IMG/VR virus record: IMGVR_UViG_3300002460_002270
Origin: an uncultured virus (IMG/VR IMGVR_UViG_3300002460_002270)
Lineage: Duplodnaviria; Heunggongvirae; Uroviricota; Caudoviricetes
DNA: 64,000 bases
Direction: 5' to 3' (one strand)
The notes beneath the pieces are model-generated. The model made no database searches and was not told the DNA's origin. It was given only the letters and a program-made list of their open reading frames with translations. Positions 8,536 through 43,185 of the stretch are shown piece by piece; within the stretch, counting starts at the first letter, position 1; the number at the start of each line of letters is the position of its first letter. The position numbers and the translations under genes were made by a program.

Positions 8536-8607
8536 GCCCATGTAGCATAATGGTGATGCAGCTGATTTGTAATCAGCAGATTGCACGTTCGAGTCGTGTC
8601 ATGGGCT
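8536..8607 (+). tRNA. tRNA-Thr(TGT)
   Basis: GCCCATG/CATGGGC; GCTGA-TTTGTAA-TCAGC. Confidence 0.9.
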
Positions 8608-8612
8608 TGTAT

Positions 8613-8687
8613 GTCGTTTGGAGGCAGATTAGTAAGCCGCCTGGCTGTGAACCGGGTGCTAGCGGGGGCAGAACCCGTCAAACGACC
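8613..8687 (+). tRNA. tRNA-His(GTG)
   Basis: GTCGTTT/AAACGAC; CCTGG-CTGTGAA-CCGGG; T-loop GGCAGAA. Confidence 0.8.
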
Positions 8688-8691
8688 TCTT

Positions 8692-8766
8692 GCCTGTGCG
8701 GTCCAGCCCGGAGTGGACGCCTCCCTGTCACGGAGGAGACCATGGGTTCAAATCCCATCATGGGCG
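8692..8766 (+). tRNA. tRNA-Asp(GTC)
   Basis: CCTCC-CTGTCAC-GGAGG; TTCAAAT T-loop. Confidence 0.9.
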
Positions 8767-8775
8767 TGATGAATA

Positions 8776-8855
8776 TGGGTCGGTGGTGTAAAAAGAGTAA
8801 TGGTAGCACACCACCTTTGCGGTGGTGATGGAGGTTCGAATCCTTCCCGACCCAT
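8776..8855 (+). tRNA. tRNA-Gln(TTG), enlarged D-loop
   Basis: TGGGTCG/CGACCCA; CCAC-CTTTGCG-GTGG; TTCGAAT. Confidence 0.65.
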
Positions 8856-8858
8856 CAT

Positions 8859-8946
8859 GGAGAGTTGCTTGAGCATGGTAAGAGACCGGTTTGCTAAACC
8901 GAGGTCGGGCAACACGCCCGCGGGGGTTCAAATCCCTCACTCTCCG
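8859..8946 (+). tRNA. tRNA-Ser(GCT)
   Basis: GGAGAGT/ACTCTCC; loop TTGCTAA; long variable arm. Confidence 0.9.
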
Positions 8947-8996
8947 CTATGAAGTGTGAATACGGATAGGGATGCCGCGGAGACACGGTCTACTGC

Positions 8997-9269
8997 GTGG
9001 TCCATGAGGGCAGGGTCAAGAGGATAACGTTCAGCAGGTCCCTGGCCGAGCATGTTATAGAGCGTGCAGGTAAGGGACGCGTTGAGAGGTTTGACGTCGT
9101 CCTGGGACGGGCGTTGGACATGGGTGAGACAAGCAGCTCTGGGCTGTATGCGCTTATCAGAACAAAGAACGGGCGTGTCCTTCGTGTTGCAACGTCGTTT
9201 GAAGAGGCTGACCTCCTATGTGACTACGTGTCGCGGTGTCTTTATGAGGCACGTCTTGTTATGATATGA
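8997..9269 (+). CDS. hypothetical protein (start uncertain)
   Basis: In-frame ATG at 8949 is separated from this ORF by a single TAG at 8967-8969. Confidence 0.5.
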   Translation: MVHEGRVKRITFSRSLAEHVIERAGKGRVERFDVVLGRALDMGETSSSGLYALIRTKNGRVLRVATSFEEADLLCDYVSRCLYEARLVMI

Positions 9270-9276
9270 AAATGAC

Positions 9277-9350
9277 GCGGGCATGATGTTAACGGACTAG
9301 CATGTTAGCCTTCCAAGCTAAATGTGTGGGTTCAAATCCCACTGCCTGCT
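9277..9350 (+). tRNA. tRNA-Gly(TCC)
   Basis: TTAGC-CTTCCAA-GCTAA; U73; G3.U70 pair. Confidence 0.9.
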
Positions 9351-9376
9351 CTCTTTGAAAATTGAATACAACCCTT

Positions 9377-9464
9377 GGAGACGTAGACCGCTATGGATGC
9401 GGGCGAGGCTGTAACCCTCGCGGTGCTTTAAGCACCCATCTGGGTTCAATTCCCAGCGTCTCCT
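9377..9464 (+). tRNA. tRNA-Tyr(GTA)
   Basis: GGAGACG/CGTCTCC; CGAGG-CTGTAAC-CCTCG; long variable arm. Confidence 0.85.
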
Positions 9465-9466
9465 TT

Positions 9467-9540
9467 GCTGAGATCGTCCAATCAAGCAGGACGCATGCAT
9501 GTTGCTGCATGAAATGTGGGTGCAAGTCCCACCCAAGGCG
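9467..9540 (+). pseudogene. degenerate tRNA
   Basis: D and T arms present; 8-nt anticodon loop ATGTTGCT; poorly paired acceptor stem. Confidence 0.5.
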
Positions 9541-9546
9541 TCAATC

Positions 9547-9615
9547 GTAGCAGTGGTGAAAAGCATCACACAGGAGAACCAATCCTGGGTTGTAGTATCG
9601 AACCTACCTGCTACG
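9547..9615 (+). tRNA. atypical tRNA-like RNA (nominal anticodon ACC)
   Basis: GTAGCAG/CTGCTAC; GTGA-AAAGCA-TCAC; CAGGA-GAACCAA-TCCTG; A33. Confidence 0.5.
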
Positions 9616-9681
9616 TTAAGTCAGCCATGAGGGATGGCTGTGAGTGTCAGCTGTTAAAGAGGCTGACATATCCCTCACCAC

Positions 9682-9751
9682 CCGGGAGTGGTGTAAAGCA
9701 ACACGGCAGGCATTGGGCCTGCAGATGGAGGGTCGCATCCTTCCTCCTGGA
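9682..9751 (+). tRNA. atypical tRNA-like RNA (nominal anticodon TTG, G3.U70)
   Basis: CCGGGAG/CTCCTGG-A; GTGT-AAAGCA-ACAC; GCAGG-CATTGGG-CCTGC; A33. Confidence 0.55.
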
Positions 9752-9757
9752 CTCATT

Positions 9758-9829
9758 GCCTCCATGGCGTAACTAGAAGCGTTCCTGATTCTTATTCAGG
9801 GGGTGGGGGTGCGATTCCTCCTGGAGGCA
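9758..9829 (+). tRNA. tRNA-Lys(CTT)
   Basis: GCCTCCA/TGGAGGC; CCTGA-TTCTTAT-TCAGG. Confidence 0.8.
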
Positions 9830-9887
9830 TGGTTATCAAGCCGTCCCGACAAGGGAATGTAGAAGACCTGCTGTAAAGCAGGCAAAT

Positions 9888-9958
9888 GCGCTTTTCATAT
9901 AACGGGATTATGTCTAGTTGAAGCCTAGAACATCTCAGTTCGACTCTGAGGGAGCGCA
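9888..9958 (+). tRNA. tRNA-Phe(GAA)
   Basis: TCTAG-TTGAAGC-CTAGA; CTCAG-TTCGACT-CTGAG. Confidence 0.85.
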
Positions 9959-9963
9959 ATTAA

Positions 9964-10035
9964 CCCGTCGTAGCTAACTGGACAGCAAGACTCTTTTAAA
10001 GTCGAGAATGGTGAGTTCGATTCTCCCCGGCGGGA
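9964..10035 (+). tRNA. tRNA-Lys(TTT)
   Basis: CCCGTCG/CGGCGGG; GACT-CTTTTAA-AGTC. Confidence 0.75.
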
Positions 10036-10040
10036 CTTTT

Positions 10041-10113
10041 TCACTCCAAGTATTCCAGCTGAAACGAGCGGCTGTTAACCGCTAAGAGGTGGGGGCAGCA
10101 CCCACGGAGTGAG
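10041..10113 (+). tRNA. tRNA-Asn(GTT)
   Basis: TCACTCC/GGAGTGA; AGCGG-CTGTTAA-CCGCT; T-loop GGCAGCA. Confidence 0.75.
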
Positions 10114-10129
10114 CTTCTTATTTATGCAG

Positions 10130-10474
10130 ATGGAACCCTACGTCTACAAGGCACGCTGCACAAGGGTCATTGACGGAGACACGGTCAATCTTGAGGTTGA
10201 CCTTGGTTTTCACGTCTTTATCAAACAGAGGTTCCGTCTATCGAGGATCGATGCCCCTGAGACGTACGGTGTGAAGAAGGACAGCGATGAGCACGCTGCG
10301 GGAACACTGGCAAAGGAACGACTCACTGAGCTCATCCTTGATAAGGACGTAGTCATAAAGACAGATAGGGACAGAGGCGACAAGTACGGTCGCTACCTCG
10401 TCGAGGTCATCGTCGATGGGACGAATGTGAATGACCTCCTGCTTGAAGAAGGGCTCGTTAAGGTATATTCCTAG
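10130..10474 (+). CDS. thermonuclease (staphylococcal nuclease family)
   Basis: RVIDGDT, RLSRIDAPE, DKYGRYL, NDLLLEEG. Confidence 0.9.
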   Translation: MEPYVYKARCTRVIDGDTVNLEVDLGFHVFIKQRFRLSRIDAPETYGVKKDSDEHAAGTLAKERLTELILDKDVVIKTDRDRGDKYGRYLVEVIVDGTNVNDLLLEEGLVKVYS

Positions 10475-10544
10475 GTGTGGGCTAACGGTAAGCCACCTCG
10501 TTTGGGGCGAGGGTATCATGGAGGTTCGATCCCTCTCACCTAGA
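10471..10544 (+). tRNA. tRNA-Pro(TGG)
   Basis: CTAGGTG/CACCTAG; CCTCG-TTTGGGG-CGAGG; overlaps nuclease stop codon. Confidence 0.9.
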
Positions 10545-10546
10545 TT

Positions 10547-10661
10547 TCAATAGGCGGCCAGCTCCCATGACGAGCTGCGAACGCGTCGATGGCAGACGGG
10601 AAAACGTCATCGATGGTCAGGCTGTGTGAAACTCCGAAATCACACAGCGATCGCCTGTTGA
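10547..10661 (+). ncRNA. candidate four-way-junction structured RNA
   Basis: 11-bp closing stem TCAATAGGCGG/TCGCCTGTTGA enclosing three hairpins. Confidence 0.5.
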
Positions 10662-10665
10662 GCCT

Positions 10666-10738
10666 CTAGACGTGATGTTGGTAGTCAACGGCGGTTCGGA
10701 TCCGTCTGTCATCGGAGGTTCAATTCCTCTCGTCTAGA
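10666..10738 (+). tRNA. tRNA-Pro(CGG)
   Basis: CTAGACG/CGTCTAG; GGCGG-TTCGGAT-CCGTC. Confidence 0.75.
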
Positions 10739-10809
10739 TCGTGCATTGGAATGGCATCTTCCTAATGGGACGACCTTGGTGGTTGTCGGGTCAAACCACC
10801 AAAACTTTT

Positions 10810-10882
10810 GGGGACATAGCTTAGCTGGGAAAGCGCTTGCTCGGCATGCAAGAGAGTGTGGGTTCGACTCCCGCTGTCTCCA
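10810..10882 (+). tRNA. tRNA-Ala(GGC)
   Basis: G3.U70; CTTGC-TCGGCAT-GCAAG (C33). Confidence 0.9.
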
Positions 10883-11200
10883 TCGATTTACATAACATGA
10901 GAATAGAGCTTCATTGCTTAAACGCACATCTGCTTGCATGCAGACATGGGACAGGTCAGAACCGTGGGTGCGTTGTTGTAACGTGCATGATGCTAGCTCC
11001 TGGACGTTCACAGCGCATGTTTAAAGCATGTCAATGCGAGGGTGACCACGCGGACGTATGGGTCCTATGATGGGCGCGGGTGCCCGTCAGGGCCAAATCA
11101 TCTGGGACGATGACGAAGCATGTGATAGACGCGCTTGATAGACCAAAAGACATTGAACATAGACTTTAAGACAACGATGCGTCCAGCAGGGCGCATCATC

Positions 11201-11275
11201 GCCGACGTACACCAATCTGGTAGAGTGAACAGTTTGAGAGACTGTGTAGTGGTGGTTCGAGTCCACTCGTCGGCA
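11201..11275 (+). tRNA. tRNA-Leu(GAG), short variable loop
   Basis: GCCGACG/CGTCGGC-A; ACAGT-TTGAGAG-ACTGT. Confidence 0.85.
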
Positions 11276-11280
11276 TGAAC

Positions 11281-11353
11281 GCCCTTGTAGTCCAACAGTA
11301 GAGATAACTGATTCAAACCCAGTCCAGTGTGGGTGCAACTCCCTCCAGGGGCA
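11281..11353 (+). tRNA. tRNA-Leu(CAA), short variable loop
   Basis: GCCCTTG/CAGGGGC-A; ACTG(A)-TTCAAAC-(C)CAGT. Confidence 0.75.
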
Positions 11354-11354
11354 T
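11328..11354 (+). repeat. 27-bp direct repeat, copy 1
   Basis: TGTGGGTGCAACTCCCTCCAGGGGCAT identical to 13987-14013. Confidence 0.95.
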
Positions 11355-11387
11355 TAACAGTATATACATCTACTGGTATAGTAGATT

Positions 11388-12230
11388 ATGAAAGTTCCAG
11401 TTCAAATTCGAAAACAAATCCCCGTAAAATGTCAATATTGTGACAAACAATTCAAGAATTGTTATTCAGCAGGAGCACATAAACCACATTGCTTGGGAAG
11501 AGGTCACATTCCTACACCCTTAGGGTCAACTGGATGGGCAAAAAATCGGACATCATTTAGCGATGATCGAATTCGCGCCAAAATTAAATCTGATAAAGTT
11601 TTTATTAGAAATTCAAAAGCAAGCAGAGGATATGTTAAACATATCGCTTTAAAGGAAGATTTGTTAAAGAATATCTGCAGTGAATGTAATAATCAGGGAT
11701 ATTGGAATGATAAGACGTTAATACTTCAAATTGACCACATTAACGGTATTCGAGATGATCATCGTTTAGAAAATCTTAGAATGCTTTGCCCAAATTGTCA
11801 CTCTCAAACAGAAACATACTGCGGACGAAGTAAAAAGACCGGACGAATTTCTGACGAGAAAATAATAAAAGCGCTTCATTCTTCAATATCAATTTCAGAC
11901 TGTATAGGAAAATTACGAGGGCGTCACGCACATAGAGTTCAAGTGTTAATGATTCAGAATGGTATTACATTTCCCGAACAGGTTAAAAAGTCTAAAAGAA
12001 AATACGGAGATAGAAAAGCATATTCAAAACATACAAAAACAAAAACGAAAACAATCGATGGACAAAGACTTGAAAAGTTATTTCAATCTGCTATCGATTT
12101 TTCAAAATTTGGATGGTGTCAAAAAGCAAGTAAAATTATAAACATGACGCCTCAAGCTATTTCTCGTTTTATGAAACGTGCATGTCCTAAATTTTATGAA
12201 GAGAAATGTTTCCATCGAAAGTCAAAATGA
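11388..12230 (+). CDS. HNH homing endonuclease with N-terminal Zn finger
   Basis: CQYC...HKPHC; LQIDHINGIRDDHRLENLRMLCPNCHSQT; AT-rich relative to flanks. Confidence 0.9.
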   Translation: MKVPVQIRKQIPVKCQYCDKQFKNCYSAGAHKPHCLGRGHIPTPLGSTGWAKNRTSFSDDRIRAKIKSDKVFIRNSKASRGYVKHIALKEDLLKNICSECNNQGYWNDKTLILQIDHINGIRDDHRLENLRMLCPNCHSQTETYCGRSKKTGRISDEKIIKALHSSISISDCIGKLRGRHAHRVQVLMIQNGITFPEQVKKSKRKYGDRKAYSKHTKTKTKTIDGQRLEKLFQSAIDFSKFGWCQKASKIINMTPQAISRFMKRACPKFYEEKCFHRKSK

Positions 12231-12272
12231 TCAAGCAGAAGTCTGTTGTGGGTTCGACTCCCACCTCAGGCA
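12222..12272 (+). pseudogene. 3' half of a long-variable-arm tRNA-Leu(CAA)
   Basis: TCAAAA-TGATC-AAGCAGAAGTCTGTT-GTGGG-TTCGACT-CCCAC-CTCAGGC-A; no matching 5' half nearby. Confidence 0.7.
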
Positions 12273-12348
12273 TAGTGGCGTTGGCGGTTGTGCCCATTGT
12301 GGCTCCTTCGGAGACCCCGAGGGTGTCCACTTAAATCAACCGCCGTTC

Positions 12349-12424
12349 AGGTCAGGAGCTAGGTCGTAGGGAACGACACCGGCTTCCAACACCGGCGCAA
12401 GGGGTTCGACTCCTCCCTGGCCTG
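12349..12424 (+). tRNA. tRNA-Trp(CCA)
   Basis: AGGTCAG/CTGGCCT-G; CCGG(C)-TTCCAAC-(A)CCGG; atypical D region. Confidence 0.7.
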
Positions 12425-12836
12425 CTAATAGCTGGACACTCTGTTGACAACGCCCCGTTAAGGCGGACCTAACTCAAGGAAGTGATTACCCTAGAGCGGT
12501 CTAAACGTTTGTCTGGCGGCGCTTTGTGGAGACGAGCATAGTCGTCCCGTCAGGTGAGATGGCGATAGCACTTGACGTTAAACCAACAGAAACCGCCACC
12601 CGCAGGACAAAGCCTGCATGTGTCCTTCAGGAAATGAGTTGGACACACATGGGCCCTCGTATGGGACAGCAGCGCTTAAGGCCGACAAATGGAGCTGCGC
12701 TTGCGGATCGGTTCGAGTCCGATAGGGTCCATCCCGTCTCACCTATCATTATGAGCATTGCTCATCACTCAAAGGCGACTGTGAATCGTCGGAGAGCCAG
12801 GGTCAAACTGCGTTGAGGCTAAACGTGGGAGCGGGA
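12425..12836 (+). ncRNA. candidate large structured ncRNA
   Basis: About 410 nt without a credible ORF; many local hairpins and long-range complementarities. Confidence 0.45.
12651..12731 (+). ncRNA. tRNA-like domain lacking D-stem and anticodon loop
   Basis: GGGCCCT/AGGGTCC-A (G3.U70); T-arm ATCGG-TTCGAGT-CCGAT. Confidence 0.65.
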
Positions 12837-12840
12837 CCAA

Positions 12841-12917
12841 GCTACTGTAGACCAACTTGGTAGGAGTCGCTCGTTTCAGACGCGAGAATCGTGTGAGTTC
12901 GAATCTCACCAGCAGCA
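12841..12917 (+). tRNA. tRNA-Leu(CAG), short variable loop
   Basis: CTCGT-TTCAGAC-GCGAG; GTGAG-TTCGAAT-CTCAC. Confidence 0.85.
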
Positions 12918-12952
12918 TATGGGTGTGCCGCAGCCCTAAAATGCGGCATCAC

Positions 12953-13025
12953 GCTCTCGTAGACCAATAGCAGAGTCACATGTCTTAGAAGCATGGTGTT
13001 GGGGATGCAACTTCCTCCGAGAGCA
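12953..13025 (+). tRNA. tRNA-Leu(TAG), short variable loop
   Basis: GCTCTCG/CGAGAGC-A; CATGT-CTTAGAA-GCATG. Confidence 0.8.
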
Positions 13026-13028
13026 TAT

Positions 13029-13101
13029 GCCGTTGTAGACCAACAGTAGAGTCAGGACACTTAAAGCGTTCGTAGTGTGGGTGCAAATCCCTCCAACGGT
13101 A
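13029..13101 (+). tRNA. tRNA-Leu(TAA), short variable loop
   Basis: GCCGTTG/CAACGGT-A; GGAC(A)-CTTAAAG-(C)GTTC. Confidence 0.75.
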
Positions 13102-13137
13102 TTTACAGTAGGCGTGTAATCTGTTATTTTGAACTAT

Positions 13138-13983
13138 ATGAAGGTTCAAAATAGAAAGCAAACTCCTACAAAATGTAATCATTGTAATAGAGTGTTCAAA
13201 AATGCTTATTCTGCAGGAGCGCACAAACCTCATTGCTTAGGTACGGGCTACAAATTTTCTACGATAAACTGTGCATGGAGCAGTGGCAAAAACGCTTATA
13301 ACGACTGTAGAGTACGTTCACTTGTATCAAAAGATGAATTATTTGTCAAAAACTCTAAAGCTAAGAGAGGACATATAAAACGTATAGCATTGACAGAAGG
13401 GTTGTTGCAAAATGTATGTGCATTATGTGGTCTTAAAGATAGCTGGAATGAGAAAATGATAGTTCTTCAAATAGATCATGTTAACGGAATTAGCGATGAT
13501 CATAGATTAGAAAATCTTCGAATGTTATGCCCAAATTGTCATTCTCAAACAAAAACATATTGCCGTAAAAATAGAAAGAGAGAATATCTTACAGACGAAC
13601 AAATTTTAGATGTAATAAAAATTGCAAATAATATATTTCATGTCACACAAATACTTGGAATTTCACCAAATAACACGGGACGAATCAAAAGCTTAATGAT
13701 TGAAAATTGTCTTACATTTTCAAGCTATGAAATAGAAAGAACACAGTTAATTCAAAAACAAACGATTATAAAAGAAAAGAAGCTTCGAGGGCAAAAAAAG
13801 CAAATACTATTAGAAAAGTTAATCAAATCTGACATTCAATTTGAAAAATATGGATGGGCAGTTAAGGCATCAAAAATTTTAGAAATTACGCCACAAAATG
13901 TATCAAGATGGATGAAACGCATGGCACCTGAGTTTTATGAACAAAGATGCTTTAAGCGACGAAGTCAAGCACGTGCTGCTTAA
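13138..13983 (+). CDS. HNH homing endonuclease, paralogue of 11388-12230
   Basis: YSAGAHKPHCLG and LQIDHVNGISDDHRLENLRMLCPNCHSQT nearly identical to first copy; AT-rich. Confidence 0.9.
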   Translation: MKVQNRKQTPTKCNHCNRVFKNAYSAGAHKPHCLGTGYKFSTINCAWSSGKNAYNDCRVRSLVSKDELFVKNSKAKRGHIKRIALTEGLLQNVCALCGLKDSWNEKMIVLQIDHVNGISDDHRLENLRMLCPNCHSQTKTYCRKNRKREYLTDEQILDVIKIANNIFHVTQILGISPNNTGRIKSLMIENCLTFSSYEIERTQLIQKQTIIKEKKLRGQKKQILLEKLIKSDIQFEKYGWAVKASKILEITPQNVSRWMKRMAPEFYEQRCFKRRSQARAA

Positions 13984-14012
13984 GCATGTGGGTGCAACTC
14001 CCTCCAGGGGCA
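13965..14012 (+). pseudogene. 3' half of a long-variable-arm tRNA-Leu-like gene
   Basis: TCAAGC-ACGTG-C-TGCTTAAGCA-T-GTGGG-TGCAACT-CCCTC-CAGGGGC-A. Confidence 0.7.
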
Positions 14013-14013
14013 T
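13987..14013 (+). repeat. 27-bp direct repeat, copy 2
   Basis: Identical to 11328-11354. Confidence 0.95.
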
Positions 14014-14072
14014 CAAAATTTTCTCTTCAAAGCTAAGAAAGTTCTTGGCGTGGCTCGATACTTACAACTATC

Positions 14073-14561
14073 ATGGTGAAGGTTAGAATCACAAGCAAGG
14101 GAATCATCCAAGAGCCGGGCGAGGGCACAGACCTGGGTTCAGGATTGCTGACAATCGACAATGCTAATCACACGGGCGTGCTTCCATTCAAGCAGACTGT
14201 GCAGGCTAAGACAGCTGACTTCACCGTTACGAATGCGAATGCCGGCGTGATGACGATCTCAGGAAGCCTTGTCATCACGGGCACGATGCCTGCTGCTGCT
14301 GATGCTGCTGGTGCGATATTCACGTTCAGGAACCTCTCAGCGGGTCATGAGCACACGCTGACGGGTTCTGACGCTGGTGTCGAGATGTTCAGCGAGCGCA
14401 TCAACTCAATCGGTGCAGGTGGGACATCTGCAATAACAGGCTCTAAGGGGTCACGCTTGAGGCTTGACACGATCGTTGGTTCATCTGTCACGCTGCTAAG
14501 TGACGGCGTCAATTACCTCATCCTTGGCCGCTCGGGCTCAATTACTCTCGATCAGGCCTAA
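14073..14561 (+). CDS. putative virion structural/decoration protein
   Basis: Gly/Thr/Ala-rich beta composition (KTADFTVT...SSVTLLSDG); TACTTA upstream. Confidence 0.5.
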   Translation: MVKVRITSKGIIQEPGEGTDLGSGLLTIDNANHTGVLPFKQTVQAKTADFTVTNANAGVMTISGSLVITGTMPAAADAAGAIFTFRNLSAGHEHTLTGSDAGVEMFSERINSIGAGGTSAITGSKGSRLRLDTIVGSSVTLLSDGVNYLILGRSGSITLDQA

Positions 14562-14576
14562 GACAACCCTTCATAC

Positions 14577-14647
14577 ACTCCTGTGATGTAATGGAAGCAT
14601 GCGTGGCTTCGAACCACGTCATGGGGGTTCAAGTCCCTCCAGGGGTG
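14577..14647 (+). tRNA. tRNA-Arg(TCG)
   Basis: CGTGG-CTTCGAA-CCACG. Confidence 0.85.
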
Positions 14648-14687
14648 CTCTCTTGCAACATCCAGCGCGAGCGCGTATTTAGCTAGG

Positions 14688-15635
14688 ATGGACGTTATCA
14701 GGCAGTTCCTCGTCCTTGAGGCCCGTAAGTGGATCGATGACTTCATACGCTCCTGGAGGGAGATACACGCCACTGGTGGGAAGCTTGGCGACGTCGCAAA
14801 GGAGTTTGGTATAACGCCTGAGGCAGCTGCTGCCCGGGCAACGAAGCTCAGAAAGATGAGCAATGATGCGAGCTTAGAGCTGTCAAAGCAGCAGCGCGCT
14901 GACTACAAGCTTCCCAAGTTTGCGAGGGGTCCAAGCGTAGAGACAGGCATGCGTGACGATCCCCAGCTTGAGCTCATGCCAGCTGCGATGACGCGTCAGG
15001 CACCTGAACTCATCGACATCATCAGGACGCTCAATGCGGCCAGCGGCTACACTGACGCTGCAAAGAAGCTAGGGATGAACCCATCAACGCTGAGGGGCAT
15101 TGCAAGCGACCTTAGGGACAAGGGCTATCCCGTGAAGACATTCAAGCGTGGACGACCTCCAGTTGTCGCAGGCTCGGTCACAAAGAGAAAGTTCATTGAG
15201 CTGTGGAACTCCGCTGGTAGCCCGCAGCTCGCTGCAGAACTTCTCAACTCAGAGGGCGGAAGCTTCACTGCCCAGAGTGCCTCGGCATTTGCGACAAAGC
15301 TGAGGGAGAAGGGGTTTGACCTGCAGAGCTTCACGCACCTAAGGGGTCGCAAGCGTGCCGGTGAGAGGCCCACGCCTGATGACGTCCTAAGGGACCTCGA
15401 GGCTGAGATGATGATCGACGACGGGCCCGATGAGCTTGACGATGGGGCGGACATCGATGACGAGGCTCAGGACGAAGACGAGGATGATGACACAGAGCGT
15501 GAGGCAAGGAAGGCCATGTTCGGTGACCTCGATGACGAGCTCGATGATGACAGCCCAGACGAAGATGGGCCCGATGACCTGGATGATGAGCTCGATGATG
15601 ACTTCGATGAGCTTGATGACGATGACCTAGAGTAG
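14688..15635 (+). CDS. triple HTH-repeat protein with poly-Asp/Glu tail
   Basis: Three units F/I..W/L...A..LG....A..LR.KG...F.RG; very acidic C-terminal region of about 75 aa. Confidence 0.7.
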   Translation: MDVIRQFLVLEARKWIDDFIRSWREIHATGGKLGDVAKEFGITPEAAAARATKLRKMSNDASLELSKQQRADYKLPKFARGPSVETGMRDDPQLELMPAAMTRQAPELIDIIRTLNAASGYTDAAKKLGMNPSTLRGIASDLRDKGYPVKTFKRGRPPVVAGSVTKRKFIELWNSAGSPQLAAELLNSEGGSFTAQSASAFATKLREKGFDLQSFTHLRGRKRAGERPTPDDVLRDLEAEMMIDDGPDELDDGADIDDEAQDEDEDDDTEREARKAMFGDLDDELDDDSPDEDGPDDLDDELDDDFDELDDDDLE

Positions 15636-15637
15636 GG

Positions 15638-15709
15638 GTCTCTGTGGTCCAATGGATAAGACGCATGCCTGCGAAGCATGCAATGTGGGTTCAACTCCCG
15701 CCAGAGACA
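15638..15709 (+). tRNA. tRNA-Arg(GCG)
   Basis: GTCTCTG/CAGAGAC; CATGC-CTGCGAA-GCATG. Confidence 0.9.
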
Positions 15710-15712
15710 TTT

Positions 15713-15783
15713 GCAGCTGTGATGTAACGGTAGCATGTCACCGTGCCAAGGTGGACGTGTGGGTTCAAGTCCCGCCAGCTGCT
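15713..15783 (+). tRNA. tRNA-Gly(GCC)
   Basis: GCAGCTG/CAGCTGC-T; TCACC-GTGCCAA-GGTGG. Confidence 0.9.
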
Positions 15784-15818
15784 GCACAGTTATGCAGGCG
15801 GCCCAGGGCCTGCAATCT

Positions 15819-15891
15819 GCAGGCGTAACGTAAAGGCAGCGTGGCGGTCCTACACACCGCATCTGTGGGGGTTCGACTCCCTCCGCCTGCA
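15819..15891 (+). tRNA. tRNA-Val(TAC)
   Basis: GCGGT-CCTACAC-ACCGC (C33). Confidence 0.85.
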
Positions 15892-15903
15892 TGGAGGAGA
15901 TGC

Positions 15904-16113
15904 ATGATAACAAAGAGACACGTGGATGATGCAACGCAACCGTGGGAGGAACGATACAGGAGGCTTGAGGCACATCACATAGAGGAGACGTCAGAGCTAT
16001 ACGCTGAGATCAAGAGGCTCAGGAAGCTAGCACGCACTCCGGTGTCCCAGGCCCTTGATGCGGCCATCGTCATCACAGCATTCATCTTCGTGCTTGCAGC
16101 AATCTTTTTCTAA
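15904..16113 (+). CDS. small membrane-anchored protein
   Basis: GGAGGAG SD; C-terminal hydrophobic helix. Confidence 0.55.
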   Translation: MITKRHVDDATQPWEERYRRLEAHHIEETSELYAEIKRLRKLARTPVSQALDAAIVITAFIFVLAAIFF

Positions 16114-16115
16114 GA

Positions 16116-16184
16116 GGGGAAGCCATAGGGGTGGCGTCTGGTCTTGCACACCGGAACGGGCGGGATCGTTACCCGTCTTCTCCA
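16116..16184 (+). tRNA. tRNA-Ala(TGC), shortened D-arm
   Basis: GGGGAAG/CTTCTCC-A (G3.U70); CTGGT-CTTGCAC-ACCGG. Confidence 0.7.
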
Positions 16185-16187
16185 TCT

Positions 16188-16258
16188 GCGGTCCTAGCTC
16201 AACGGTAGAGCACCGGTTCGACACACCGGCGACGTGGGTCCAACTCCCTCGGTCCGCA
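16188..16258 (+). tRNA. tRNA-Val(GAC)
   Basis: CCGGT-TCGACAC-ACCGG (C33); canonical D-arm. Confidence 0.8.
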
Positions 16259-16261
16259 TGA

Positions 16262-16332
16262 TGCTCCTTAGGCTAATGGGAAACCACTCGGTTCTGACCC
16301 GAGCATTGTGTGTTCGAGTCACACAGGAGCAA
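16262..16332 (+). tRNA. tRNA-Gln(CTG)
   Basis: TGCTCCT/AGGAGCA; CTCGG-TTCTGAC-CCGAG. Confidence 0.85.
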
Positions 16333-16337
16333 TCTAT

Positions 16338-16410
16338 TGTCCCGAAGAGCAAACGGCTGCGCCGGCGCGCTTTGAACGCGCTGTAGTGGGTTCGACCCCC
16401 ACCGGGACCA
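16338..16410 (+). tRNA. tRNA-Gln(TTG)
   Basis: GCGCG-CTTTGAA-CGCGC; GTGGG-TTCGACC-CCCAC. Confidence 0.8.
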
Positions 16411-16414
16411 TCAC

Positions 16415-16486
16415 GCTCGCATCGTTCACTGGTTAGGACCGCACTCTTTCAAAGTGCAGAATGGGGTTCAATTCCCCATGCGAGCA
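16415..16486 (+). tRNA. tRNA-Glu(TTC)
   Basis: GCACT-CTTTCAA-AGTGC. Confidence 0.9.
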
Positions 16487-16492
16487 TGCTTT

Positions 16493-16564
16493 CTAGCTGT
16501 CGTCCAGTAGCAGGATGCCCGGTCGGGATCCGGGTGGTCGCAGGTGCAAATCCTGCCAGCTAGA
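16493..16564 (+). tRNA. tRNA-Pro(GGG)
   Basis: CTAGCTG/CAGCTAG-A; CCCGG-TCGGGAT-CCGGG (C33). Confidence 0.85.
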
Positions 16565-16568
16565 CCAC

Positions 16569-16642
16569 GCGAGCATGGTAGAGATAGTTCTGAACGTCGG
16601 TCTGATAAACCGAAGAGCCAGGGGCAGTGCCTGGTGCTCGCA
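16569..16642 (+). tRNA. tRNA-Ile(GAT)
   Basis: TCGGT-CTGATAA-ACCGA; T-loop GGCAGTG. Confidence 0.8.
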
Positions 16643-16670
16643 CTCAATGATAGTAGTTATAATCTAGTAA

Positions 16671-16743
16671 CCGACGTGCGCGGCTAGTTGCTCGGCAGAG
16701 TCTTATAAACTCTAGCGGTTGTGGGCAGAACACAGACGTCGGA
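16671..16743 (+). tRNA. tRNA-Ile(TAT)
   Basis: CCGACGT/ACGTCGG-A; AGAGT-CTTATAA-ACTCT; T-loop GGCAGAA. Confidence 0.7.
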
Positions 16744-16744
16744 T

Positions 16745-16823
16745 CGCGGGATCGACTGGAGTTGGTGCCAGCACTAGTCTCATAAGCTAGGTAATAACGT
16801 GGGTTCGAGTCCCACTCCCGCAA
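16745..16823 (+). tRNA. tRNA-Met(CAT), initiator-like
   Basis: CGCGGGA/TCCCGCA with C1xA72 mismatch; loop CTCATAA. Confidence 0.8.
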
Positions 16824-16825
16824 TC

Positions 16826-17089
16826 ATGCGACCCAAACGATACGCGGAAAGAGGTGAGATTACGTTACGTGTTGAACCGAATGACACACCATTTGTGGGT
16901 CCTCCCCTAAAGTCTTTCGGTGTCTACAACCCGTCATACAGCATAATCTATTACGAGGGTGAGTTCTACAACTCACTGATGCTGAGGCCCTCACATGCCG
17001 TCTTCGGCGTCGTGGCCTGGGAGCTCAATCCCAAGAAGAGGATCAGACGCAGGACGATACGCACACGGCCTCAGCATGATGATGATTGA
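16826..17089 (+). CDS. hypothetical protein
   Basis: 87-aa ORF between tRNAs. Confidence 0.45.
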   Translation: MRPKRYAERGEITLRVEPNDTPFVGPPLKSFGVYNPSYSIIYYEGEFYNSLMLRPSHAVFGVVAWELNPKKRIRRRTIRTRPQHDDD

Positions 17090-17154
17090 CGGTGTCTGTT
17101 GGATGACGGGTGTTCACATTGAGCATAACGTTCATTACGTCCGTCATCCGTCAT

Positions 17155-17242
17155 GGAGAGTTGACCGAACGGCAAGGTGGCGGCCTCGAAAGCCGATGCT
17201 GCGCCTAGCAGGCGCATGGGGGTTCAAGTCCCTCGCTCTCCG
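17155..17242 (+). tRNA. tRNA-Ser(CGA)
   Basis: CGGC-CTCGAAA-GCCG; long variable arm. Confidence 0.9.
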
Positions 17243-17255
17243 TTAGAATGATGTA

Positions 17256-17285
17256 GTGTAAAATGGATGATGCGTGTGTTATGAT
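17256..17285 (+). promoter_or_regulatory. class-A promoter GTGTAA-N18-TATGAT
   Basis: Recurrent motif and spacing. Confidence 0.6.
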
Positions 17286-17294
17286 GAAACCAGA

Positions 17295-17507
17295 ATGAGG
17301 TTTCTTGTTGCGATTGCTGCCATCTTCATGTTATTTAGCTGTGCAGATGATGTCACGCTTAAGCTATGGCAAAAGTGTGAAAGCATCTGCAGTATAGAGA
17401 GCAAGATTCAATCTGTCACATGCAGCCACTGGGATGAGCGTTGTCGATGTCAATGTGCCAGCGGCGAGAAGTTTGCATTTCCGCGTAAACAAGCTAGGAC
17501 GAACTGA
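17295..17507 (+). CDS. small Cys-rich lipoprotein
   Basis: Signal peptide with LFSC lipobox-like motif. Confidence 0.55.
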   Translation: MRFLVAIAAIFMLFSCADDVTLKLWQKCESICSIESKIQSVTCSHWDERCRCQCASGEKFAFPRKQARTN

Positions 17508-17509
17508 TC

Positions 17510-18337
17510 ATGCCTGAGGGACCAGAAGTCAGGGTCACGACCGACTCACTTCGAAAGAGGATGGTGGATCGCCTGCTCTGTGGCGCGACCGCTGCATCAG
17601 GCCGCTATGTCACGCATGGCCCACCCAAGGGTTGGGACGTTCTCCACAAGAGGCTTCCCATGTCAATCACACAGGTGGGCTGCAAGGGAAAGTTCATCTA
17701 CATCCTACTCGAAGACGGCTCAAGCGTCTGGAACACGCTGGGTATGACAGGGAGATGGGCGTTGAGACGCAGCGAGCATACACGCGTCACCTTCATCCTC
17801 CGTGATGATGAGGATGACGAGAAGGGGACATTGCTGCACTTCGAGGACGCACGGAACTTCGGCACGTTGCGATTTGTGACAACCCATGATAGGCTTGACA
17901 AGAGGCTCGCGCTGCTGGGCCCTGACCCATTGGAGGAGAATGTCAACAAGTACGTCTTCAAGAAGCTCCTCAAGGAGACCAGGAACGTCAAGAGGACGTT
18001 GGCTGAGGTGCTGATGGACCAGAGGGTGCTGTCGGGCGTAGGGAACTACATCAAGTCTGAGTCACTCTATCAGGCCCTCCTGAGCCCATTCAGGACCTGT
18101 GGGTCGCTCGATGATGACGACGCCTACAGGCTGCACAAGGCCGTAATGGATGTGATGCAGACGTCCTACAAGGCGCAGGGGATGACGTTCAAGGACTTTA
18201 GGAATGTGGACGGTGAGAAGGGCATGTTTCGCTGCGTTGTCTACGGGCGGAAGCATGACATCATGAAGAATGAGGTGGTCAGTGTTGAGACGCCCGATGG
18301 AAGAACGACGTGGTGGGTGCCGAGCGTGCAGAAGTGA
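17510..18337 (+). CDS. Fpg/Nei-family DNA glycosylase/AP lyase (zinc-less finger)
   Basis: MPEGPEV, KGK, LGMTG, DARNFG, LGPD, GVGNY; C-terminal GRTTWWVP without a four-Cys finger. Confidence 0.9.
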   Translation: MPEGPEVRVTTDSLRKRMVDRLLCGATAASGRYVTHGPPKGWDVLHKRLPMSITQVGCKGKFIYILLEDGSSVWNTLGMTGRWALRRSEHTRVTFILRDDEDDEKGTLLHFEDARNFGTLRFVTTHDRLDKRLALLGPDPLEENVNKYVFKKLLKETRNVKRTLAEVLMDQRVLSGVGNYIKSESLYQALLSPFRTCGSLDDDDAYRLHKAVMDVMQTSYKAQGMTFKDFRNVDGEKGMFRCVVYGRKHDIMKNEVVSVETPDGRTTWWVPSVQK

Positions 18338-18353
18338 TGATGTATGTGAATTT

Positions 18354-18439
18354 GGAGGGTGCCACTAAGTGGTAGGTAACGGGCCTTGAAAGCCCGGGGA
18401 ACGTGATGAGCGTTCGGGGTTCGACTCCTCCACCCTCCG
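18354..18439 (+). tRNA. tRNA-Ser(TGA)
   Basis: CGGGC-CTTGAAA-GCCCG; long variable arm. Confidence 0.9.
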
Positions 18440-18532
18440 TAAGACGTTTCGCACACTGCATGATATTGAGGGAACAAGATGACGTAGGTAGCAATTGATT
18501 GGAAGATGGGCCTGCCCATCTGTGAGAATGAC

Positions 18533-18883
18533 ATGGCAGAGAAGCAGTTGAAGATGTATATCTTAGTTCGAGAGTCGATCCCGTTAGGATTAGGCGTAAA
18601 CTCCGTGGGACACACGGCGTTGGCGACGTATCTCAGGTTCAAGGACGACCCTGAGACGCAAGCATGGGTGACCAGCAGGCACTTCAAGAAGGTGACATGC
18701 GTTGTCTCAGACGAAGAGTTTGAGAGAGCCAAGACGTTTGAAGACTGCGTCGTCATGACTGAGAACGCTATTGGAGACGCTGAGGTCGCTTTGGGGTTCA
18801 AGCCGCGAGAGAGGTGGCCAGGGTTCTTTCGGGCGCTGCGGCTGTTCGGAAGTCATCTAAGTTTACAGGAGAAGCATGACTAG
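18533..18883 (+). CDS. peptidyl-tRNA hydrolase II (Pth2)-like protein
   Basis: KMYILVR...GHTA...W...FKKVTC...ALGFKPR...LRL pattern. Confidence 0.7.
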   Translation: MAEKQLKMYILVRESIPLGLGVNSVGHTALATYLRFKDDPETQAWVTSRHFKKVTCVVSDEEFERAKTFEDCVVMTENAIGDAEVALGFKPRERWPGFFRALRLFGSHLSLQEKHD

Positions 18884-18938
18884 CACATGCGCCTCTCTCA
18901 TAAGGAGGAGAAAGCGGGGGCAGCACCCGCTCCAGGTA
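18864..18938 (+). tRNA. tRNA with CAT anticodon (Met/Ile2), defective acceptor stem
   Basis: CCTCT-CTCATAA-GGAGG; T-loop GGCAGCA; TACAGGA/TCCAGGT pairs only 4 of 7; overlaps Pth2 ORF end. Confidence 0.55.
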
Positions 18939-18950
18939 TGGTCTAATCAC

Positions 18951-19021
18951 GCCCGCATAGTTCAAGGGTAGAACAAGCGTCTCGTAAGCGCTAGATGCCA
19001 GCTCAAGTCTGGCTGTGGGCT
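18951..19021 (+). tRNA. tRNA-Thr(CGT)
   Basis: AGCGT-CTCGTAA-GCGCT. Confidence 0.85.
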
Positions 19022-19025
19022 CTAT

Positions 19026-19105
19026 GCTGCTGTGGTCTAATGGATGGGCACCCGGCTTCTAACCGGGTGATAAACATGTGGGTTCGATTCCTACCAGCAG
19101 CGCCA
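19026..19105 (+). tRNA. tRNA-Arg(TCT) with encoded CCA
   Basis: CCCGG-CTTCTAA-CCGGG; ends GCCA. Confidence 0.85.
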
Positions 19106-19135
19106 ACCCTAATTGAGTGGATGATAGTTATGAAC

Positions 19136-19669
19136 GTGGACAGCCTTCGAAGCTACATCCGTCTTGTGCTAGAGGATACTGACGGCTCATTCCTGTCAGA
19201 CGGTGTCATCCGCAAGCTCATCTCACTCTATGCAAGCAAACCCGGAGGACAGCCAGACTTGAACTGGCATCACGTCTCATTCTCAGCATCCTCAAAACGA
19301 GGTCCCTGGGGAAACGTGGGAGGCATGTACGTCCCTGAAGATGTCACGCTGCTGATAAATAGCGACACACGAGGTGACATGCGAAAGAAGGTCAGGGACG
19401 TTCTCCATGAGATAGCCCACTACAACCAGCACATGGCCTGGAATGAGGATGATAAGGCACGCTTTGCATGGGTCAAAGGCCGTGGACTGCCTCCTGGGCG
19501 GGATAGTTATGACGTCTACGACATCTCATACGAGGAGATAGCAAGGTTCTGGAGGTCAAAGTACGGCTATCGTGACGCGCCACATGAGGTTGAGGCCAGG
19601 ACATTTGCGGACGCAAACCTAAGAGCTGCGATGGATGCGATAGCAGATGTCATCCAGGTCGCAGCATAA
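19136..19669 (+). CDS. putative Zn metallopeptidase-like (HExxH) protein
   Basis: LHEIAHYNQH...PHEVEAR; N-terminal SLRSYIRLVLE; TAGTTA 5 nt upstream. Confidence 0.6.
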   Translation: MDSLRSYIRLVLEDTDGSFLSDGVIRKLISLYASKPGGQPDLNWHHVSFSASSKRGPWGNVGGMYVPEDVTLLINSDTRGDMRKKVRDVLHEIAHYNQHMAWNEDDKARFAWVKGRGLPPGRDSYDVYDISYEEIARFWRSKYGYRDAPHEVEARTFADANLRAAMDAIADVIQVAA

Positions 19670-19672
19670 TAC

Positions 19673-19744
19673 GCTATCATAGCTCAAAGGATAGAGCACT
19701 CCCCCGGTACGGGAGCGATATGGGTTCAATTCCCGTTGTTAGCT
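19673..19744 (+). tRNA. tRNA-Thr(GGT)
   Basis: CTCCC-CCGGTAC-GGGAG (C33). Confidence 0.85.
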
Positions 19745-19750
19745 CTTTCT

Positions 19751-19780
19751 GTGTAAAGGTCATCACCATATTGGTATGAT
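19751..19780 (+). promoter_or_regulatory. class-A promoter GTGTAA-N18-TATGAT
   Basis: tRNA-Arg starts 7 nt after the -10 box. Confidence 0.6.
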
Positions 19781-19787
19781 AGACCAT

Positions 19788-19860
19788 GCTCCTGTAGCCT
19801 AGTAGATGAGGCACACGCCTCCTAAGCGTGTTTACGTGGGTGCAATTCCTACCAGGAGCA
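19788..19860 (+). tRNA. tRNA-Arg(CCT)
   Basis: CACGC-CTCCTAA-GCGTG. Confidence 0.85.
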
Positions 19861-19863
19861 TTT

Positions 19864-19939
19864 GGCCCTGTGGTGTAAGTTGGCTAACACGTCGGTCCCT
19901 CAAACCGAAGACGTGCGGGTTCGAGTCCCGCCAGGGTCA
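19864..19939 (+). tRNA. tRNA-Glu(CTC)
   Basis: TCGGT-CCCTCAA-ACCGA (C33). Confidence 0.85.
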
Positions 19940-20157
19940 TGGAAGGAGAACTACAGATGGGTCTTGTTGAGGCAAAGAGGATGTTCATCTTGAGGTTCAG
20001 CGTAGACCGCCCTGGGCTTGCGGTCGGTGTGGGAGGAGACAGGACAAACCCGACGATCGAGGTCAGGGGCAGAAAGGAAGCTGACCTCATCGACATCCCG
20101 GATGAGTTCCAGGGGTTTGTCGTGAACAAGGCTGTCGTGAGAGCCAAGGCTCTCTAG
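19939..20157 (+). CDS. hypothetical protein
   Basis: Likely start at the second ATG after GGAGAA. Confidence 0.5.
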   Translation: MEGELQMGLVEAKRMFILRFSVDRPGLAVGVGGDRTNPTIEVRGRKEADLIDIPDEFQGFVVNKAVVRAKAL

Positions 20158-20164
20158 AGCTATA

Positions 20165-20237
20165 GATGCCGTGGCTCGAATAGTTAGGCGCGTGCCTGCA
20201 AAGCACGTCCATGCGGGTGCAAGTCCCGTCGGCATCT
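20165..20237 (+). tRNA. tRNA-Cys(GCA)
   Basis: GATGCCG/CGGCATC-T; CGTGC-CTGCAAA-GCACG. Confidence 0.85.
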
Positions 20238-20276
20238 TTGCGCAGATAGTCTGCGCAGCATCGGAGCTGTGGATTT

Positions 20277-35017: not shown

Positions 35018-35018
35018 C

Positions 35019-36903: not shown

Positions 36904-36975
36904 CCGTGCGTAGCTCAGTGGTAGAGCAGTCCTCTCTAAAAGGACGCGTCGTGGGTTCGAGTCCCTCCGCATGGA
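36904..36975 (+). tRNA. amber suppressor tRNA (CTA)
   Basis: CCGTGCG/CGCATGG-A; TAGCTCAGTGGTAGAGC; GTCCT-CTCTAAA-AGGAC; TTCGAGT. Confidence 0.9.
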
Positions 36976-42833: not shown

Positions 42834-43185
42834 GGGGCAGAAATAGGTTTCGACGTTGTCAAGGCTCCACGCATTGCAGGCGGGCTGGACGCACCCTTTG
42901 CGCCCAAGACAGTTAGACGGCGAATATAGCATTGAGAATGAGTTGCCGCTAGCGGCATGATTTCCGGAGTCGATGCGCACTCCGTCAAAGAAGCGTGTCA
43001 AGGCCCGTGGCTGGGCATAAAGCGCCAGAATGGTTACCCCGCTTGTAGCGGGTGGAGCATCGTTCTCGATCGATGCAGGCGGAGACCATCGAGATAGTCT
43101 GCGCGTCTAGAAAGACGCGACAAGCCTGTGGATGAGTGTGTGGATGCTACGACGGCGGACGCGAGGGCAGTACTCGCCTGCTCCA
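42834..43185 (+). ncRNA. ssrA: tmRNA
   Basis: 5' GGGGCAG-AAATAGGTTTCGAC; 3' GCGAG-GGCAGTA-CTCGC-CTGCTCC-A (G3.U70); tag ORF 42919-42960 GEYSIENELPLAA*. Confidence 0.9.

Follow-up and report, generated by a model that had tools for sequence, protein, structure and literature searches.

IMGVR_UViG_3300002460_002270 is an uncultured virus of the Caudoviricetes, and the 64,000 nucleotides of it that we analysed (hereafter, the window) are part of a large phage. Genes in the window include three of the RNA-ligase family and those for PhoH, a helicase, ClpP, peptide deformylase, isocitrate lyase and malate synthase, and the nearest GenBank relatives are huge phages, with ∼33% identity in the helicase. 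A tRNA array spans 8536-20238; it holds 35 of the 36 genes that ARAGORN calls, two more that only Rfam calls, and several non-canonical ones (found by script), in all roughly 40 or more tRNA genes. Inside this array, on the + strand at 12651..12731, lies an 81-nt element with a 49-nt core, which is the subject of this study. On balance, we favour the view that this candidate is a divergent copy of a recurrent phage RNA, resembling a miniature transfer-messenger RNA (tmRNA), with alanine identity and only the tRNA-like domain (TLD), of the kind published for mycobacteriophage DS6A.

The candidate sits between two related AT-rich HNH endonuclease genes, at 11388-12230 and 13129-13983. These genes have ∼33% GC, compared to ∼55% around them, and each directly follows a tRNA-Leu gene. 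Displaced 3' fragments of tRNAs come after the HNH genes, at 12246-12272 and 13985-14012, the latter being an exact 24-nt copy of the 3' end of tRNA-Leu(CAA). A non-canonical tRNA-Trp(CCA) at 12356-12425, with a C31.A39 mismatch and a weak T stem, is reported by ARAGORN only at the 80% threshold and fills in the missing Trp.

Direct reading of the candidate gives an acceptor stem in which GGGCCCU (12651..12657; GGGCCCT in the DNA) forms seven of seven pairs with the 3' strand AGGGUCC (AGGGTCC) at 12724-12730, namely G1-C72, G2-C71, G3.U70 and four more Watson-Crick pairs. The discriminator, A73, is at 12731, which closes the acceptor 3' segment (12724..12731); no CCA is encoded, and T comes next. 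The acceptor 3' strand is immediately preceded by a canonical T arm, AUCGG-UUCGAGU-CCGAU at 12707..12723 (ATCGG-TTCGAGT-CCGAT), the same as in tRNA-Ala genes elsewhere. CGTATGGGACAG offers no pairing for a D stem, and the reading of 12651-12731 yields no anticodon arm with 5 bp and a 7-nt loop. The original prediction had described just these features (an acceptor with G3.U70 and A73, a perfect T arm, an unpaired D region and no anticodon), and all of them hold.

The core was parsed by alignment to a covariance model of the family described below (R1) and, for the P2 3' strand and the two internal loops, by a structural descriptor as well. It begins with an unpaired 12-nt D-loop analogue, CGUAUGGGACAG, at 12658..12669. 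It contains GG, and in the sub-family alignment G13 and G14 never vary; an unpaired loop of 10–14 nt with GG, in place of a D stem, is a family feature that the candidate shares. There follows a helix, P2, whose 5' strand CAGCGC (12670..12675) forms six standard pairs with GCGCUUG (12697..12703), read as GCGC(U)UG with one bulged U. Enclosed by P2 are a 5' internal loop, UUAAGG (12676..12681; family consensus gugAAAG), an apical hairpin, CCG-ACAAA-UGG (12682..12692), which is a near-match to CCGACAAUGG, and a 3' internal loop, AGCU (12693..12696). The junction to the T arm, CGG (12704..12706), departs from the family consensus, gAC. The lengths of the core elements match R1 exactly, and all 21 modelled pairs are standard, with acceptor and T arm free of flaws. 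An irregular GCAGC...GCTGC arm had been proposed for this region; it is one possible register, but the register that fits the relatives is CAGCGC/GCGC(U)UG.

Standard gene finders pass over the candidate. It is called neither by ARAGORN at default settings nor by Rfam at gathering thresholds, nor by Rfam at E ≤ 10 over 3.3 kb. At the 80% threshold, ARAGORN reports an odd tRNA with a four-base anticodon, and its only tmRNA call is an implausible permuted one; the default run gives no tag frame, which is what one expects of a TLD-only form. By ARAGORN and the Rfam tRNA model (RF00005), there is no cloverleaf, as the D arm and an anticodon arm with a 7-nt loop were not found. A loose scan for acceptor plus T arm on both strands outside the tRNA array returned 16 matches, none with a TTCRANY T loop.

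To look for similar RNAs, we searched viral contigs using a pattern in which only GGGC, the T loop and GTCCA are fixed and the core is over-long. The scan yielded at least 116 stretches, and 80 loci among the matches listed were analysed; the counts that follow refer to these listed matches. Of 94 pattern matches, 49 have all seven acceptor pairs and at least four of five T-stem pairs, and 45 of these are unique. ARAGORN calls only five of the 45 as tRNAs. At least 40 unique elements with alanine identity and no anticodon, 75–103 nt long, are present in viral contigs, the TLD-only tmRNA of DS6A among them. Many carry the tmRNA signature GGUUUCGAC...GGAC, and several are located between tRNA genes.

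These elements share a fold. RNAalifold on 14 members, DS6A included, predicts the acceptor, a 6-bp P2, a 3-bp apical stem and the T arm, with compensatory changes in 16 of the 21 pairs. When 23 sequences were aligned by the model, 94.7% of cells were paired, and both sides change in all six P2 pairs. None of 500 shuffles reached these values for pairing and covariation, and slid controls were 29–51% paired. One caveat is that fitting to the model makes the 23-sequence alignment lean toward the structure; when the cores alone were aligned with MAFFT, RNAalifold lost the P2 register. The signature UUCGAC + GGAC is retained in eight of the 14 members used for training. Collectively, these data show that a family of phage TLD-only mini-tmRNA-like RNAs with a covarying P2 exists. 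Its gene is an RNA of ∼80 nt, made of the upper half of a tRNA-Ala with a GG-containing loop and P2 plus hairpin in place of the D and anticodon arms; the candidate would be a variant with tRNA-Ala-type arms and without the tmRNA D-loop signature.

R1 was built from the 14 members with the candidate left out. Under this model, the candidate reaches 47.5 bits (E 6.4e-8), more than any other match in 122,666 bases. Ten tRNA-Ala genes that have the candidate's acceptor and T arm score 34.0–39.8 bits, so that the candidate's margin over these matched genes is only 7.7–13.5 bits. Ordinary tRNAs reach at most 39.6 bits, independent anticodon-less members 41.2–56.1 and training members 58.9–91.3, with DS6A, itself a training member, at 61.2. 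Part of the 47.5 bits arises by construction, because the pattern behind the training set fixes 19 nt that the candidate has too.

We also wrote a descriptor of the core, which requires a P2 of at least 6 bp, a 6-nt loop with AAAG or AAGG, a CC...GG apical hairpin and a 4-nt loop; it was composed after the candidate had been seen. The candidate has this structure as well as the AA[AG]+CC motif. When its core was shuffled, 247 of 200,000 sequences had the family layout and none of the 200,000 had both layout and motif. Among training members, the strict form of the descriptor is matched by 7/14 and a relaxed form by 11/14.

Several known systems bear comparison with the candidate. The TLD-only tmRNA of DS6A has an entry in the tmRNA Website and appears in passages of the literature (Hudson et al. 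2014, PMC4131195; PMC11915505). In those passages, which cite Mao et al. 2009, a molecule similar to that of DS6A is said to inhibit tmRNA strongly in E. coli, perhaps by titrating SmpB (PMC4131195; PMC11915505). We located the DS6A element, unannotated, at JN698994 28478-28557. It is of nearly the same size as the candidate (80 versus 81 nt, with cores of 48 and 49 nt), and both have G3:U70, A73, a canonical T arm, an unpaired GG-containing D-loop analogue, and one closed helix with a small apical hairpin; both lack a tag frame and an encoded CCA. Unlike the candidate, it retains the tmRNA signature, with GGUCGAC and, ahead of the T arm, CAC/GAC. Temperate and 60 kb in size, DS6A has its element outside a tRNA array, whereas the candidate is in the array of a phage that appears to have a full tmRNA as well.

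Tag-less tmRNAs are described from jakobid mitochondria and some plastids, and their presumed role, in the parts of these sources that deal with them, is limited to freeing stalled ribosomes (PMC3590771; PMC11915505). As depicted there, these RNAs (RF02544) resemble the candidate in having a tRNA-Ala-like domain, G3:U70 and A73, and no tag frame; unlike the candidate, which has no RF02544 match at E ≤ 10, they mostly come from two-piece permuted organelle genes.

Ordinary tRNA-Ala (RF00005) has the same acceptor and T arm, but it also has the D stem and anticodon arm that the candidate lacks. An acceptor and T arm alone can be processed, CCA-tailed and, given G3:U70, alanylated. The mascRNA-type RNAs (RF01684) make a weak 11.5-bit match to the T-arm half of the candidate; alanine minihelices and mascRNA are synthetic or eukaryotic, unlike the candidate, and there is no kinship.

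The closest relative among the matches listed is a 145-kb contig, G001 (L025/L133), whose helicase is 51% identical to that encoded at 40914-42536 in the window. Its 77-nt element lies between tRNA-Ala(tgc) and tRNA-Ala(ggc); the apical hairpin reads CCGACAAUGG, compared to CCGACAAAUGG in the candidate, and P2 is unrelated in sequence and still paired. A scan for the hairpin CCGACAAUGG plus a T loop found 18 viral contigs with 12 unique elements. All 12 have seven of seven acceptor pairs, G3:U70, A73 and C74, although the acceptor was not part of the pattern. Twelve of the 18 contigs are ∼131–136 kb, and the one we searched (L136) matches cultured Streptomyces phages of cluster BE. In Streptomyces phage Wofford (NC_048722, L151), the mini element occupies 87748-87825, in an unannotated gap of the tRNA array, and it is spanned in the best 15 of 83 matching Streptomyces phage records. 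Cultured cluster BE phages thus carry an unannotated TLD-only element of 77–78 nt beside an annotated full tmRNA, and published descriptions, in the portion that covers these genes, count one tmRNA (PMC5764925).

The mini elements of the cluster BE phages (Wofford) and of large uncultured phages (G001 and two further contigs, G006 and G008) resemble the candidate in their place in a tRNA array, alanine identity, near-identical apical hairpin and covarying P2. They differ from it in length (77–78 nt), in a P2 of 7–8 bp, in the internal loop GAAAG, and in having C after A73. They also differ in their matches to the Rfam tmRNA model (34–40 bits; 14.9 for G001) and in folding probability (0.44–0.98 versus 0.031).

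A number of observations weigh against placing the candidate in this family, in addition to the narrow R1 margin, the partly built-in score and the retrospective descriptor. The Rfam models for tmRNA, tRNA and mt-tmRNA do not match it at E ≤ 10, and the best hits in a 121-nt search are tRNA-Sec (12.0 bits) and mascRNA (11.5 bits). The Rfam tmRNA model matches the DS6A element over its full span (43.2 bits, E 3.5e-15) and other members at 14.9–39.8 bits, whereas the candidate is unmatched in a search of equal size. When the window was searched with a sequence-only hidden Markov model of the family core, the core of the candidate was not among the hits at E ≤ 100. Where tmRNAs have the signature GGNUUCGAC + GGAC, and the window's own probable tmRNA (see below) has GGUUUCGAC + GGAC, the candidate has UGGGACAG + CGG, and UUCGAC is absent from its D-loop analogue. 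T comes after A73, where C is the rule in the family (27 of 28 members); among tRNAs of the window, 17 of 27 likewise have T at this place.

The predicted fold is a weak point. The candidate's acceptor plus T arm forms with a probability of 0.031, the lowest of 29 elements, compared to a family range of 0.041–0.977 with a median of 0.868. This probability is no better than that of shuffled cores, and the minimum free energy is unremarkable (z = −0.70). A stable fold of acceptor and T arm is a typical rather than a defining property of the family, and the candidate lacks it; for 16 tRNAs of the window, the same probability is 0.07–0.93. We therefore regard the claim of a tmRNA-TLD architecture as borne out in part: the candidate fits the model of a phage RNA family that includes DS6A better than any tRNA tested does, but it has no tmRNA D-loop signature and no Rfam tmRNA match, and is the weakest predicted folder.

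Because it folds so poorly in prediction, the candidate could also be a dead or decaying copy of the mini-tmRNA family, homologous to the others but no longer folding or working, a reading we judge unlikely though by no means negligible. In line with decay are the low folding probability, the loss of the D-loop signature, the CGG junction in place of gAC, the P2 of 6 bp with a bulge where the sub-family has 7–8 bp, the lack of a Rfam tmRNA match, and a neighbourhood reshaped by two HNH genes and the displaced tRNA fragments behind them. Against it stand the 21 of 21 standard pairs and the flawless acceptor and T arm. A strain variant, seen in one contig at a depth of ∼3.5 and hence weak as evidence, has five transitions in 12572-12628 and none in 12651-12709, which covers 59 bases of the candidate. 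Furthermore, thermodynamic prediction ignores tertiary contacts, and two other family members also fall at 0.041–0.109.

A second alternative is that the candidate is a tRNA-Ala pseudogene unrelated to tmRNA, in which a rearrangement put other sequence in place of the D and anticodon arms of a redundant tRNA-Ala gene and the family likeness is coincidental. A decayed tRNA-Ala was indeed our first reading, because the acceptor and T arm are identical to those of ordinary tRNA-Ala genes. The 22 nt of T arm plus acceptor 3' strand are identical in seven of seven tRNA-Ala(TGC) genes of viral contigs retrieved by exact search, and the full 7+25 nt are present in three of three tRNA-Ala genes of genome contigs. 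These 32-nt arms, identical in 10/10 genes, count against the family assignment. The window already has a tRNA-Ala(ggc) at 10810-10882 and a UGC-anticodon tRNA at 16113-16184 (both by ARAGORN), HNH-associated tRNA fragments lie nearby, and the core, with a fold no better than that of shuffles, has an internal repeat of 10 nt, AGCAGCGCTT/AGCTGCGCTT, whose score is equalled in 15 of 2000 shuffles.

That reading lost ground to the family, its covariation, the R1 fit and the relatives' hairpin. The idea of decay rested on the arms alone, because the candidate core is not significantly like that of tRNA-Ala (503 of 2000 shuffles reach its score). None of the 200,000 shuffled cores combined the family layout with the motif, all 10 matched tRNA-Ala genes fall below the candidate under R1, and the apical hairpin recurs in the element of the closest relative. 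We consider the pseudogene improbable. Two other ideas were rejected. An intron-containing tRNA appears only in ARAGORN -i calls that are low-threshold and inconsistent, and a 21-nt loop cannot be a group I intron. An attP-like tRNA fragment was dismissed because both acceptor strands are present and there is no integrase nearby.

The candidate might instead serve as a processing handle, that is, as an RNase P or 3'-end site by which a structured spacer RNA is released or stabilised, with no role of its own in translation. RNase P recognises minihelices of acceptor and T arm. The 225-nt spacer just upstream (12426-12650) has z = −3.35, with one of 200 shuffles folding as well, and the candidate is placed directly at its 3' end; the spacer matches no Rfam family. 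In G001 and Wofford, however, the element stands directly between tRNAs without such a spacer, and a mere cleavage site would have no need of the conserved P2 and apical hairpin. These data make a handle very improbable.

As to whether the resemblance is due to chance or to a protein-coding gene, a 96-aa open reading frame (ORF) at 12526-12816 spans the candidate. None of the four ORFs that overlap the candidate has a Pfam or PHROG match, and the 32-nt identity to tRNA-Ala arms and the R1 E value of 6.4e-8 argue in the same direction, so this explanation is effectively refuted. Judged by sequence, the candidate is more than chance, since its arms are exactly those of tRNA-Ala genes.

Searches for the locus elsewhere returned little, and none brought up a diverged relative of it. 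Among the sequencing runs listed as containing the phage, none is of RNA, and the DNA contigs show it at low depth, with one variant contig among them. Blastn of 12231-12840 against GenBank phages and tblastn of a neighbouring 261-aa protein gave no match, and for the same protein, 430 pattern stretches in metagenome contigs contained none that was confirmed. An RNA ligase search led to one distant viral contig (39% identity). The core 25-mer of the candidate and the 3' end of the tRNA-Trp have no viral matches, and the 5' 17-mer has one chance match, within a coding region of an unrelated phage. A pattern with the candidate's own arms and an enlarged core found nothing in viral contigs; its single metagenome match, a 2147-bp contig with one difference over 1701 bases, is uninformative because it comes from the same phage. 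Within the window, blastn-short of the core revealed no duplicate that might be its source.

The window probably contains a separate full-length tmRNA gene, outside the array, on the + strand at 42834..43185. By eye, its 5' end reads GGGGCAG-AAAUAGGUUUCGACG and its 3' part has GGAC, then the T arm GCGAG-GGCAGUA-CUCGC and CUGCUCC-A. The acceptor has seven of seven pairs, G3.U70 and A73; the T loop is non-canonical, and a tag frame runs from 42919-42960. ARAGORN reports the gene only at lowered thresholds, as permuted and with the tag GEYSIENELPLAA*. The earlier claim of a complete tmRNA at 42834 is thus probable on inspection, but neither ARAGORN at default settings nor Rfam at E ≤ 10 finds anything there.

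Pairing of a mini element with a full tmRNA elsewhere in the genome is also seen in relatives. In a search of whole records with the Rfam tmRNA model, the near-complete Wofford genome has a full tmRNA (98.7 bits) plus the mini element (38.4), and G006, a 340-kb contig rated 99% complete, has both as well (87.8 and 39.8 bits). Two fragmentary contigs show the mini element alone. In five others, one of them rated 100% complete, the mini element scores 14.9–38.9 bits and no full tmRNA exceeds the cut-off. SmpB (PF01668) was found in none of nine related records and in none of 54 scanned ORFs of the window, which also counts against the favoured assignment. Since these records yielded no phage SmpB, the mini RNAs would depend on that of the host.

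The non-canonical T loop of the window's probable tmRNA recurs in tRNAs of the window. Genes with the T loop GGCAGNN lie at 8614-8686, 10041-10113, 16569-16642, 16671-16743 and about 18870-18940, with anticodons GUG, GUU, GAU, UAU and CAU. ARAGORN and Rfam overlook most of these genes, which provide the His, Asn and Ile tRNAs that are absent from the annotated set. Another tRNA-like element, 78 nt long, lies at 8777-8854. Its acceptor stem and T arm are perfect and its D region is long; where a normal anticodon loop would be, a 7-bp stem ends in UUUGC. This element scores 27.1 bits under R1, and no tool calls it by default.

The UGC-anticodon tRNA at 16113-16184 can be drawn in two acceptor registers. 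That of ARAGORN has A1.C72 and A3-U70, and Rfam at gathering thresholds omits the gene; the alternative, which starts 3 nt downstream (16116), has a perfect stem, G3:U70 and no D stem. The tRNA-Gly(UCC) at 9277-9350 has G3.U70 (with U73), the main alanine identity pair in a glycine tRNA. Among viral contigs, L037:151-239 and L030:151-233 hold tRNA-Ala-like genes with an intact D arm and an insertion beside or inside the UGC anticodon loop, which may be further disabled or altered variants of tRNA-Ala. Outside the array, a CUA-anticodon tRNA at 36904-36975 (labelled 'Pyl' by ARAGORN; Rfam tRNA, 60.8 bits) is an amber suppressor and may point to recoding of TAG in part of this phage. The adjacent malate synthase and isocitrate lyase genes (33557-36248) put both enzymes of the glyoxylate shunt in a phage genome.

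If the candidate is a TLD-only mini-tmRNA-like RNA, it would be transcribed with the tRNA array from the + strand and released by RNase P and a 3' nuclease, like its tRNA neighbours. It would then receive CCA and be charged with alanine by the alanyl-tRNA synthetase of the host. Together with host SmpB and EF-Tu, it could act as a rival of tmRNA, for these two factors or for stalled ribosomes, so that host tmRNA would tag and rescue less; alternatively, it could donate its alanine without adding a tag. From precedent and anatomy, we infer a function of one or the other kind, as an SmpB competitor or in tag-less rescue. A broader scheme, which we put forward only tentatively, is that large phages commonly carry a two-RNA kit for taking over ribosome rescue in the host: a tagged tmRNA of their own and an ∼80-nt TLD-only RNA in the tRNA array, both dependent on host SmpB. 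The mini RNA would block host tmRNA or rescue ribosomes tag-free, sparing phage proteins from being marked for degradation. In the lineage of the window, it would have taken on tRNA-Ala arms and lost the D-loop signature, which could mean a shift of partner away from SmpB.

In the literature we searched (main texts of open papers), a single phage TLD-only tmRNA, that of DS6A, is treated as a curiosity, and no family of such mini elements beyond it is described. Our scans suggest that TLD-only RNAs are common in phage tRNA arrays, with at least 40 unique elements, and they show that an entire class of genes escapes tRNA and tmRNA finders. For the window, an unexplained tRNA-like oddity becomes a testable gene assignment. 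Should such RNAs prove to be expressed and charged, phages would possess a small RNA dedicated to targeting trans-translation. This would bear on how phages deal with stalled ribosomes and proteolytic tagging during infection, and would offer a natural inhibitor or variant of the tmRNA-SmpB system for study.

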